Assembly (NCBI RefSeq): GCF_963921235.1
Contig: NC_086097.1
Span: forward strand, 94,242,001 to 94,306,000
Reading direction: 5' to 3'
DNA from: Mobula hypostoma
Taxonomy: Eukaryota
Length of the DNA: 64,000 bases
Below are positions 27,337 through 30,209 of the stretch, one piece after another (position 1 is the first letter of the stretch; every line of letters begins with the position of its first letter). The notes beneath the pieces were generated by a model. That model had not been told where the DNA came from. It searched no databases and saw nothing but the letters and a program-made list of their open reading frames with translations. The position numbers and the translations under genes were made by a program.

Positions 27337-27438
27337 TACTAGAGAAGTGATAGGATGATTTGCAGTGGGCGGTAATTGCTGAGAGTGGAGAAAGTTGGGA
27401 AAGAGGGCACTGCCTGGAGAATTGTGCTTAACTGATAG

Positions 27439-28006
27439 TTGTTGTTGTTCGTCCATCGTTGACGTCGATGAGGACCTCAACACCATTATGATGGTGTCGA
27501 GACTAGGGCGTGATTTGGATTTAAGTGAGGGAGAGTTGCGCAGCGTCAGCCTCACTCTCTCTTCCCAATTCCCATCTGGATCCAGTGGCAAGACAAGGGT
27601 TGAGACGGCTGGAAATGGGACTAGGCGCAGTGGATGACCAGGACGTCTTCTGTGTCTTGTCGTGCTCGACACGTTCCACGACGCTTGCAGAGACCGCCTT
27701 CTTGACCATTGGACCTTCCATAGGTCTCGTCCGCTGAATCTGCCGGAGTCTGTCTTCACATGCTGGGATAGACAACTCCCTATCACACTGAGGGTTTGAA
27801 ACCCATCGGCTACCCTCACCTGGTTTAGCCGGCTTGTCGAAGCCGTTGCCCGGGGTGTGGCCGCTGTCGCATGCAAACAGCTTCGGGGAGCCACAAGTGA
27901 GAGCTGAGTGCCAGGTGGGGACCAAAGGTGGACTAACCGCCCTGAAAAGGACGCGACATGTTCCCCCACCAGAGGTGCTACCCCTCCCTGACACCCCATA
28001 CACCCC
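27439..28006 (-). mobile_element. Non-coding retroposon with a 5' HDV-like ribozyme and (CAA)n tail
   Basis: CpG-rich 568-bp insert. Tail GACGAACAACAACAA preceded by a stem-loop. Flanking direct repeat TTAACTGATAG / TTATCTGATAG (27428-27438, 28007-28017). Confidence 0.8.
27815..27997 (-). ncRNA. HDV-like (nested double pseudoknot) self-cleaving ribozyme
   Basis: P1 GGGGTGT/ACACCCC; P2 CTCACTTGT/ACCAGGTGAG; P3 GGC/GCC; L3 starts TCCCCG; P1.1 CC/GG; then GCAAC, P4 CGGCTT-CGAC-AAGCCG, and J4/2 GCTAA with candidate catalytic C at 27828. Confidence 0.8.
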
Positions 28007-29583
28007 TTATCTGATAGAATAAGGAAATGAAGGAAAAGCACAGCACACTTGGTTTATCCTAGCAGAATAACATCCATCCCATTTCTACTTCTTCCATGAA
28101 ACCCCATTCTCTTTACACATGCCTATCAATACCCCTTGGATTTGTTTGCAACTTCCCTATACTGTATTACAGTAGCCAATTAATCTACCAACTTGTCATT
28201 GCAATATGGAAGCACTGCTGAAAGCCTACATAGTCGCAGCATGCACGGACAGCACCGGCTGTGAGGATTGAGCCAAGCTCTTAGGGGCTGTGAGGCAGCA
28301 GAGTATTGCACTTAGTTTTTGTGAAATTGTAGTTGCTGAGTAATGTCCTGGTTTAGAGCAACCAGTGAAGGGTTACATGTGACTGAGATCACTGTGTAAG
28401 GCAGACCTGGGACTATCATTGAAAGGCTAGCTGGTGAGCACTAACTAACCATGGGACACAAGATGATTTAGACAAATGGAAAGTTAATGGTCCAGGAGAC
28501 AGAATTAAACTGATAACGTGGGAACACTTCCTGGTATAAAATATATTCTCATGTCAAAACAGAAACCAGACTGAGCACATCTTTTTAATCTCTAATTAGC
28601 TTTTATTGGTATTCCTTTACTGACTAAAACAGAAACATGCAATATAGGAGTTGGAGGAGGTAATTCAGTTCCTCAAGCCTGCTCTTCCGTTTAATATGAT
28701 CTTCCATCTACAATGGTAGTGAATTCCACACATTCAGTATCCTCTGAGTGAAGAAATCCAGTTGCAAGTCATTTTAACTCTCCTTCACATTCCCTCACCA
28801 AGCTGCCTACCCCTCAGCTTTCTCCATTTCTACGAAGAAGGCAAGTGCAAACTGGAACAACAAAAATTAGTATTCCACCTTGATAAATTACAACCCAATG
28901 GAATGAATCAATTGCAGGTAACCCACAGCCTGTGTAGTTCCTCCAAGCATGCACCCACATGTCTCAGGATTCAGATTCATTTATTTATCACACATACATG
29001 TACATTAGAACATCAAGTGAAATGTGTTGTTTGCGGTAACAACCAACAAAACCTAAGGATGTGCTTGGGACAGCCGGCAAGTGTCTCCACATACTCACAC
29101 GTTCTGTGTTAAATCAGTCTGATGAACCTTTACTGTAATCCTCTTACCTTTACTGTAATCCCCGCCCCTCCCATAGCCTGCTTATTCTGTCTTAGCAACG
29201 AGACCAAAACTGCACACAACACTTTTAACTGTGGTCTCAACAAAGTTAGTCAGAAGGCCGTGTCTGCTTTGTTCTCAAAACTGGTTTCGCACTTTACACT
29301 TATTGATGCATTGTAATTTTTTTTTTTGTTTTTTATAAATTTAACAAGAACATCATTCAGGATGGCCCAAAATTTGAGCAAGAGAAACATGTTAAATTGT
29401 TGCATGGAAATGACAGAATAGTAAGGTATAAACCCTTGCTTATGATGTGTGGGGTAGAAAATGGTACTGCTCAGGCATAGGAATGTGGACGCACAGTGCT
29501 GGTTGGAGTAGAATTTACAATGCGTCTGTCAGCATGTTATAAAGACAAACTTGATACTTCATATGTGGAATTGATTTTTGCAG

Positions 29584-29793
29584 AACACTTCAGTGCTCTC
29601 AGCTACCATTATCATCACTCTCCTTGGAATGATTCTGCACCTTCATTTTTGTAAAGTCGATCAGGAATCCATGCTGATTATTGGATCGATTGGAGTCCAA
29701 ATGAACACCTTGTATGCCTCGGGCAGAGAGCACGTGAATTTCATTGAGATGAAGAAAGTGAAGGATATTGTGATCAATGAAGGCTTTTATATG
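29584..29793 (+). CDS. PIGH: PIGH exon 2, 70 codons
   Basis: NTSVLSATIIITLLGMILHLHFCKVDQESMLIIGSIGVQMNTLYASGREHVNFIEMKKVKDIVINEGFYM. Acceptor TTTTTGCAG, donor ATG/GTAAGT. Confidence 0.95.
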
Positions 29794-30209
29794 GTAAGTG
29801 AAGCAGAGACTGATTACCATTAATTTTCAGCAGCAAAGGAGCTATGAATACAGCAACTGAAAGTCAGAATTTAGAATTTGATGCTTGAGCAAATCCTTCA
29901 TCAGGGATGTTACTATGGGTGTGGAGTTTTAACTGGATCTTTAATGTTTTCCTAATTCCATCTTTACAGATTGCAAATGTTCAAAAATAAGAACAAAATA
30001 TCTGGCAGAACCGAAGTTCTCCTTTGGACTAAAGGCAATCCTATGAAATTTTAGATGCAATAATTCAGGAGAAATTTAAATGGGATCAGTGTGGATTGAT
30101 AAGGGAGAAATGTTCTAAATTTGTAAGGGATAGTAAACTATGTCATATTGTTGACCGAGTTTCGTTTTAACAATGTAATAGAGTGGAGTGCAGTTGTTCA
30201 AAGTTGGAA

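Follow-up and report, generated by a model that had tools for sequence, protein, structure and literature searches.

The 64,000-nucleotide stretch of the Mobula hypostoma genome analysed here (contig NC_086097.1, positions 94,242,001 to 94,306,000 of the forward strand; hereafter the window, to which all coordinates refer) raises the question of whether a short non-coding retroposon on its minus strand opens with a self-cleaving ribozyme of the hepatitis delta virus (HDV) type and, if it does, where that ribozyme would cut its own transcript. The original prediction for this locus had read an HDV-like fold at the 5' end of the retroposon and had placed the cut between positions 27998 and 27997. 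Our analysis bears out the fold and moves the cut. The head is conserved across several diverged families and on an autonomous long interspersed nuclear element (LINE), which agrees with the idea of a ribozyme-headed family in a vertebrate, and we consider it probable that the head is an active HDV-like ribozyme whose predicted cleavage defines the 5' end of the element at position 28006.

The element is a 569-bp copy of a retroposon without long terminal repeats (non-LTR), assigned here to family A, that runs on the minus strand from 28006 to 27438. It has target-site duplications (TSDs) at both ends, with TATCAGATAA on the 5' side (28007-28016) matching, with one mismatch, TATCAGTTAA directly behind the tail (27428-27437). 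A DNA search of the species' own genome (3.48 Gb) produced 3904 first-look candidates, of which 40 were scored and found to be 94-100% alike; first-look copy counts are lower bounds, and the families are dispersed in thousands of copies. Similarity between family A copies spans 28006 to about 27440, and other copies show TSDs of 8-12 bp and variable tails of the (AAC)n or (CAAC)n type. The family was also present in contigs assembled from the sequencing runs of four organisms (Logan contigs, four runs), where the ends are identical (28006 and about 27440) and where two changes private to the window copy, at 27896 and 27883, revert to the family majority. At its 3' end the window copy reads ..GATGGACGAACAACAACAAC up to position 27438. 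Comparison of copies delimits there a family-specific 3' module (27438-27625, minus strand) that ends in ..GATGGACGAAC(AAC)n and is presumed to be the recognition tail for a partner LINE.

In the majority sequence of 30 family A copies the three sense frames contain 2, 5 and 11 stop codons, so the family is non-coding. One sense frame of the window copy is open over its full length; we rejected it as an open reading frame (ORF), given a 1-nt length difference and the stops in all three frames of the majority. A classical short interspersed nuclear element (SINE) transcribed by RNA polymerase III, with a tRNA, 5S or 7SL head carrying A and B boxes, was likewise considered and rejected, as ARAGORN found no tRNA and Rfam returned no such match at E <= 10. 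The original prediction is thus sound in its account of a non-coding retroposon with an HDV-like fold at its 5' end, which we find to be TSD-flanked and high in copy number, and also in placing the element boundary, 28006/28007, 9 nt from the G that it took as the first nucleotide of the ribozyme. Four or five diverged families in the same genome bear this head: it is common to families A, B1, B2 and C and to the single old copies D and E, which are 67-79% alike overall. Family B, with subtypes B1 and B2, is about 78% alike to A, and family C is 67-72% alike to A.

In order to describe the putative ribozyme on the level of its strands, we read the minus strand from 5' to 3'. All the strands that had been proposed earlier were recovered: GGGGTGT (27997-27991), then 89 nt to CTCACTTGT (27901-27893), the 5' strand of paired region P2; GGC (27892-27890) for P3; TCCCCG (27889-27884) at the start of loop L3; GCC (27861-27859) as the 3' strand of P3; ACACCCC (27858-27852) as the 3' strand of P1; GG (27851-27850) for P1.1; GCAAC (27849-27845); CGGCTT and AAGCCG (27845-27840 and 27835-27830) for P4; GCTAA (27829-27825) as joining region J4/2; and ACCAGGTGAG (27824-27815) as the 3' strand of P2. 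They follow one another in the order P1-P2-P3-L3-P3'-P1'-P1.1-P4-J4/2-P2', which is that of a nested double pseudoknot. A second, identical GGGGTGT occupies 28006-28000 and begins precisely with the first base of the element. With either copy as the 5' strand of P1 the arrangement passes our search descriptor, and there are consequently two registers to consider. We refer to the GGGGTGT at 28000-28006 as copy 1 and to that at 27991-27997, which the original prediction had used, as copy 2.

In the register that we favour, the first 190-192 nt or so of the element would form an HDV-like self-cleaving ribozyme of unusual build. P1 would consist of the first 7 nt (copy 1) and ACACCCC, with the predicted cut at 28007/28006. 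The joining region J1/2 would be a 98-nt insertion that forms one long hairpin (27906-27996; -45.8 kcal/mol when folded alone, z = -2.4), a peripheral domain comparable to P1.2, with its base separated by 3-4 nt from P1 on one side and from P2 on the other. This base would employ copy 2, which in the minimum-energy fold provides the 5' side and pairs with CCTGGCACTC (27915-27906). P2 would have 8 bp, a bulged C at 27823 that the pairing requires and a closing U-A pair. Its 5' strand reads CTCACCTGT in the family majority, and the only G-U pair of the window copy stems from the private C>T change at 27896; in the majority all 24 helix pairs of P1, P2, P3 and P4 are Watson-Crick. P1 has seven Watson-Crick pairs in the majorities of families A and B, and the P3 strands GGC and GCC would pair with each other, the 5' strand being constant among family majorities.

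L3 departs from the canonical loop: it is 28 nt long (26 nt in family B) and contains a hairpin of its own. Its first 8 nt look canonical (TCCCCGAA at 27882-27889; TCCCCGTA in the majority), and the loop would read UCCCCGUA followed by an inserted 5-bp hairpin, GCTGT TTGCATGCG ACAGC (27863-27881). C27888 and C27887 would pair with the GG behind the P1 3' strand to make P1.1. We take the UCCNCG of this loop to be the counterpart of the HDV L3; the original prediction had set TCCCCG beside the UCCUCG of genomic HDV and had read GCAAC as in HDV, and the nearest test of these likenesses is the weak alignment to RF02682 given below. J1/4 is GCAA (27846-27849; TAAA in family B), and P4 would be a 6-bp hairpin, CGGCTT CGAC AAGCCG (27830-27845). 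The candidate catalytic C lies in J4/2 at 27828 and is invariant in all 22 of 22 aligned heads, within the context C-N-R-A directly before the P2 3' strand (CUAA here, CCAA in family B). Right behind the ribozyme stands a further hairpin that is conserved between families (27792-27804), GGGTTT CAA ACCC in the window and GGGTC TTC GACCC in family B.

The choice between the registers turns on where the copies begin. Of the family A copies other than that of the window, 29 were compared: the exact GGGGTGTATGGGG stands at the flank in 16, in three more it is changed by one substitution or shifted by 1 nt, and the remaining ten differ only within the first 1-4 nt. None of the 39 other scored family A matches starts near copy 2. 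All nine family B copies reach within 1-4 nt of position 1, and families B and C also begin at GGGGTG(T/C) of copy 1, adjoining their TSDs, such that every family begins at its TSD with GGGGTG(T/C)AT GGGGTG(T/C). In family A the 5' ends pile up at GGGGTGT, for which the original prediction had proposed a check, at copy 1 (28006) and not at copy 2 (27997). Since all copies carry the 9 nt upstream of 27997, a ribozyme that sets the inherited 5' end must use copy 1 as its P1 strand and cut at 28007/28006, 9 nt upstream of the cut first proposed.

To what extent the fold has been maintained was analysed in MAFFT alignments built independently of the structure, comprising 54 heads or a balanced set of 22 heads, with 69 pairs scored. 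Eight of the 69 pairs changed on both sides in the larger alignment. In the balanced one this number rose to 16, compared with 8.8 +/- 1.7 in shuffled alignments (0/500 reached 16) and 3-8 in slid controls. Ten of these double-changed pairs belong to the J1/2 hairpin, three to the six pairs of P4, where CGGCTT/AAGCCG is replaced by CCGTCT/AGACGG in family B, and one to the hairpin behind the ribozyme; two are singletons. In the L3 hairpin of family B both partners of one T-A pair were lost together. For P1.1, the CC and GG are the same in all family majorities and 93% of cells are paired, with no informative covariation. The core is nearly invariant among the majorities of families A, B and C, with 6 differing sites among its 59, whereas the periphery has 48 among 153 (p = 0.0014); the six varying core sites are L3 positions 4-5 (CC, AA, TC), two in J1/4 (GCAA versus TAAA), the N of J4/2 and position 7 of P1. 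A full HMMER scan with the 73-amino-acid translation antisense to the head gave 34 representatives, and in four of these antisense-ORF relatives, from other assemblies, the codons imply a change of the P2 pair 111-187 from C-G to purine-U.

Several observations weigh against an active ribozyme in this register. The covariation that had been looked for in P1 to P4 appeared in P4 as described; P1, P2 and P3 showed no compensatory change in DNA (0/7, 0/9 and 0/3 pairs, respectively), because these helices do not vary, and the pseudoknot is argued from conservation alone. When families A and B alone are compared, the difference between core (5/59) and periphery (26/153) is not significant (p = 0.13), nor is a McDonald-Kreitman-like test of core versus periphery between the same families (p = 0.81). 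The pair at the cut site would be G-C, unlike the G.U of the HDV and CPEB3 ribozymes. The hairpin inserted into L3 might disturb the active site; we are not aware of any characterised HDV-like ribozyme in which L3 carries an insertion, and our literature searches for such a precedent among HDV-like ribozymes found none.

The covariance models of Rfam and the copies of family C add to these points. A scan of 4 kb returned nothing HDV-like at E <= 10. When 206 nt were scanned on both strands against 4227 families, the only match was a weak one to RF02682 of the HDV family (13.2 bits, E = 3.4), which aligns the consensus GGCAACGg..CCGGCUAA with GGGCAACGG..CCGGCUAA of the window. Its score compares with a gathering cut-off of 44, and no Rfam family reaches its gathering score; the models do not allow the insertions. 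In family C both copies of the strand read GGGGTGC (GGGGTGCAT twice; L055-L057 and L071-L077) while the P1 3' strand is still ACACCCC, leaving six pairs and a terminal C.A. Moreover, 11 of the 39 top family C matches are without the first GGGGTGCAT. The ten single-copy family C elements that we inspected (L081-L090) start at positions 8 (three), 9 (three), 10 (one) and 11 (three), and six of the ten retain the T or AT of the spacer. Such starts just behind P1 look more like ragged truncation than like a second clean cut; they may reflect reverse transcription halting at a folded P1 or, alternatively, cutting in the second register. The parallel change in the two strands suggests that the terminal 9-mer is re-copied at times, for instance through slippage at the GGG behind it.

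One way to accommodate such points would be to regard the head as a non-cleaving relic, an HDV-like fold inactivated by the L3 insertion and kept as a structured 5' untranslated region, with the 5' end determined by transcription initiation at G28006. The relic might, for example, bind the LINE protein, stabilise an uncapped RNA, serve as internal promoter or aid translation of the LINE ORF. The non-canonical L3 and the confinement of covariation to peripheral helices speak for it. There are also functional parallels, as the first 77 nt of L1Tc are both promoter and ribozyme (PMC3185411) and HDV-like ribozymes have been proposed to help translation initiation (PMC6765202). Against a relic, the positions needed for catalysis are constant among the majorities while their neighbours vary: the C and the AA of J4/2, the U at position 1 and the G at position 6 of L3, and the CC and GG of P1.1. 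The non-coding derivatives retain the head despite having nothing to translate, and a promoter leaves unexplained why the element should open with 7 nt that are exactly the P1 strand. We therefore judge a relic to be unlikely, while taking it seriously.

A second alternative keeps an active ribozyme in the register of the original prediction, with copy 2 (27997-27991) as the P1 strand and the cut at 27998/27997. The descriptor accepts both registers equally, and family C, with two identical 9-mers and matches without the first of them, speaks in its favour; a parallel T>C change in both strands would be expected if copy 1 were regenerated from copy 2. An RNA cut at 27997 would, on the other hand, lose the upstream 9 nt, and 29/29 family A copies together with nine family B copies reach within 1-4 nt of position 1, with 0/39 family A matches starting near copy 2. 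Copy 2 is itself paired in the stable J1/2 hairpin, and six of the ten single-copy family C elements have a T or AT left from the spacer and so begin ahead of G10. This register is accordingly a distinctly poor candidate.

The loose form of our descriptor allowed G-U pairs and asked for P2 of >=6 bp, P4 of >=4 bp, L3 of <=30 nt and J1/2 of <=120 nt. In the real window it recovered the candidate in both registers and three weak chance matches; in 120 Markov sequences of 64 kb it produced 0.36 matches each at the composition of the window and 4.0 at that of the GC-rich head. Adding TCCNCG, P2 of >=8 bp and P4 of >=6 bp gave a strict form that matched 0/120 random sequences in both compositions. 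Extrapolated from the simulated rates, a 3.5-Gb genome would contain about 0.001-0.01 matches whose pairs are all Watson-Crick, as they are in the family majority; a fit to the HDV fold as good as this one lies far outside what chance would produce. Of the two kinds of search that the original prediction had proposed, the descriptor accepts the candidate in both registers and Rfam gives no match at threshold. We regard it as exceedingly improbable that short runs of complementary letters within a GC-rich repeat resemble HDV by accident, as the three other matches in the window, the rate of up to four per 64 kb in GC-rich random sequence and the lack of an Rfam match at threshold could suggest: 0/120 simulations per composition reach the quality of the candidate, the motif begins at the first base of the element and stands on the 5' end of a LINE, where such ribozymes are known, and its helices are preserved through compensatory changes.

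The families share element positions 1-380 and then differ in their 3' modules and tails. Four family C loci extend for at least 1.9 kb, and two copies that begin with the head, 89.7% alike over about 4.03 kb, represent a LINE (L078:61-4103 and L079:105-4163). This LINE encodes an Exo_endo_phos endonuclease and an RVT_1 reverse transcriptase, with frames broken in both copies, and the copies end in ..GAGAGACAACCACCACCATC, a (CCA/CAA)-type tail. Its relatives have ORFs of about 1050 amino acids on contigs of about 4 kb, under uninformative names. The layout, a single coding region of about 1050 amino acids in about 4 kb for an apurinic endonuclease (APE) and a reverse transcriptase (RT), is RTE-like. 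Internally deleted forms also occur: L055 is a LINE copy that lacks about 607 to 1055, and short family C elements combine the first ~500 nt of the LINE, ~150 nt of other sequence and the last 42 nt of the LINE. In the short elements L056 and L057 this ~150-nt stretch occupies positions ~568-728 of the oriented copies.

Family A is about 70% alike to the LINE L078/L079 over positions 1-505, while its last ~60 nt are absent from that LINE. A search with an IUPAC exclusion pattern placed where the 3' module begins gave one match and no partner LINE for family A, and a LINE fragment with an A or B1 tail was not found among the loci gathered by then and the window. With TSDs, no ORF and a 5' end in common with an autonomous LINE, the window element is a non-autonomous, non-coding derivative of an APE+RT LINE, bipartite and similar to the short internally deleted elements (SIDEs) known from other lineages. 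At one locus an old element of family D and one of family A stand in the same orientation about 125 bp apart (L068:1445-1909 and 2034-2551).

Taking the structure and the copies together, we propose the following sequence of events for the favoured reading, an active ribozyme that cuts at 28007/28006. Without a recognisable promoter of its own, the element would be transcribed within longer host or neighbouring transcripts. The ribozyme, with C27828 in the C-U-A-A of J4/2 as the predicted catalytic nucleotide, would then cut just 5' of G28006 and so provide the exact 5' end that the copies inherit. The reverse transcriptase of a related LINE would recognise the 3' module and tail and insert the copy by target-primed reverse transcription.

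An HDV-like ribozyme on a LINE and its non-autonomous derivatives is of a known kind; its build, with a helix in L3 and a duplicated P1 strand, is new. In 2011 Ruminski et al. reportedly described ribozymes of the HDV type heading non-LTR retrotransposons. These ribozymes occur at the 5' ends of the non-LTR retrotransposons R2, RTE and baggins (PMC6765202). As there, a double-pseudoknot head, here a predicted one, stands at the first base of a promoter-less LINE and the cut, likewise predicted here, sets the inherited 5' end, whereas the L3 hairpin, the duplicated P1 strand and the cartilaginous-fish host, Mobula hypostoma, set the present case apart. In Trypanosoma cruzi the autonomous L1Tc and its non-coding partner NARTc have the same ribozyme head, Pr77/L1TcRz, with cleavage at +1 (PMC3185411). 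The sharing of a head between a LINE and a non-autonomous element and the dispersed, TSD-flanked copies are paralleled here; L1TcRz differs in being a minimal 77 nt that doubles as promoter (PMC3185411), compared with a head of about 192 nt with large insertions here. The R2 SIDEs and R2/R1 hybrid SIDEs of Drosophila join the ribozyme end of a LINE to a 3' end and are internally deleted (PMC3414825). They thereby combine one ribozyme head with different LINE tails, as do families A, B1, B2 and short C, although they are rare and restricted to the ribosomal DNA and the families described here are dispersed in thousands of copies.

For the peripheral parts, precedents exist in J1/2. A J1/2 helix that joins P1 and P2 activates large HDV-like ribozymes, as in drz-Agam-2 with its P1.2 'pinch' (PMC4908430), and the J1/2 loops of R2 ribozymes measure 216-498 nt (PMC3774820). 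The long J1/2 helix of the present head, with 3-4 nt between its base and the end of either P1 or P2, is similar; that this base is a copy of the P1 strand is not found in drz-Agam-2 or R2. With RF02682, the HDV-like ribozyme of F. prausnitzii, the head has in common GG followed by GCAAC, a P4 helix and then GGCUAA. HDV, CPEB3 and RF02682 have an L3 of 7-8 nt and a short J1/2, and the window falls far below every Rfam cut-off. In the parts of the literature available to us on HDV-like ribozymes in sharks and other chondrichthyans, or on vertebrate SINEs, there was no report of such an element.

The remaining features concern the opposite strand. On the plus strand a frame antisense to the element (27441-28006) runs without a stop through the 565 nt of the family A majority; the same holds for at least 15 of 29 copies, as in the element at L002:1444-2004:+, and the other five frames contain 2-11 stops. 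The frame gives no Pfam match and is not open in the family B1 majority (five copies), and we took it to be a product of chance and of gene prediction. Owing to this open frame in family A, public gene predictions contain translations of related copies, including 'uncharacterized protein' entries from two Mobula species. These antisense-frame relatives, several of which match only the part antisense to the head, served as probes in the species' own genome and led to families B and C and to the single copies D and E. A weak mir-320-like Rfam match antisense to the element (27544-27623, plus strand) reached 16.4 bits, where the cut-off is 55.5 (E = 4.9), and was taken as chance. A PIG-H exon lies on the plus strand at 29668-29796 (Pfam PIG-H positions 1-44, 47.7 bits), the only PIG-H match in the genome. 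The element is antisense to this exon and 1.66 kb upstream of it, in keeping with the orientation relative to PIGH given in the original prediction; one PIG-H exon was examined.

To our knowledge few HDV-like ribozymes have been described in vertebrates, CPEB3 and the R2 elements being the known ones. If our reading is true, the families described here would be a high-copy vertebrate case, and L3, which descriptors treat as a fixed short loop, could hold an extra helix, calling for wider search models. On the broader proposal our judgement is evenly balanced: that the head belongs to an active new HDV-like subclass, tolerant of an L3 helix and a duplicated P1 strand, which in cartilaginous fishes stands at the 5' end of a lineage of RTE-like LINEs and of SINE-like derivatives by the thousand, and which has gone unseen by current descriptors and Rfam, making vertebrate HDV-like ribozymes much commoner than counted. 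In such a subclass the L3 helix would adjoin the active site, in place of two looped-out L3 nucleotides, and one copy of the P1 strand would be parked in the J1/2 helix. The LINE, its deleted derivatives and the families with different P4, J1/2 and L3 hairpins form a natural series for testing the peripheral parts of the fold, and the element offers a concrete model of how promoter-less short retroposons gain a precise 5' end. If the ribozyme does cut, the known build of HDV-type ribozymes would be widened.

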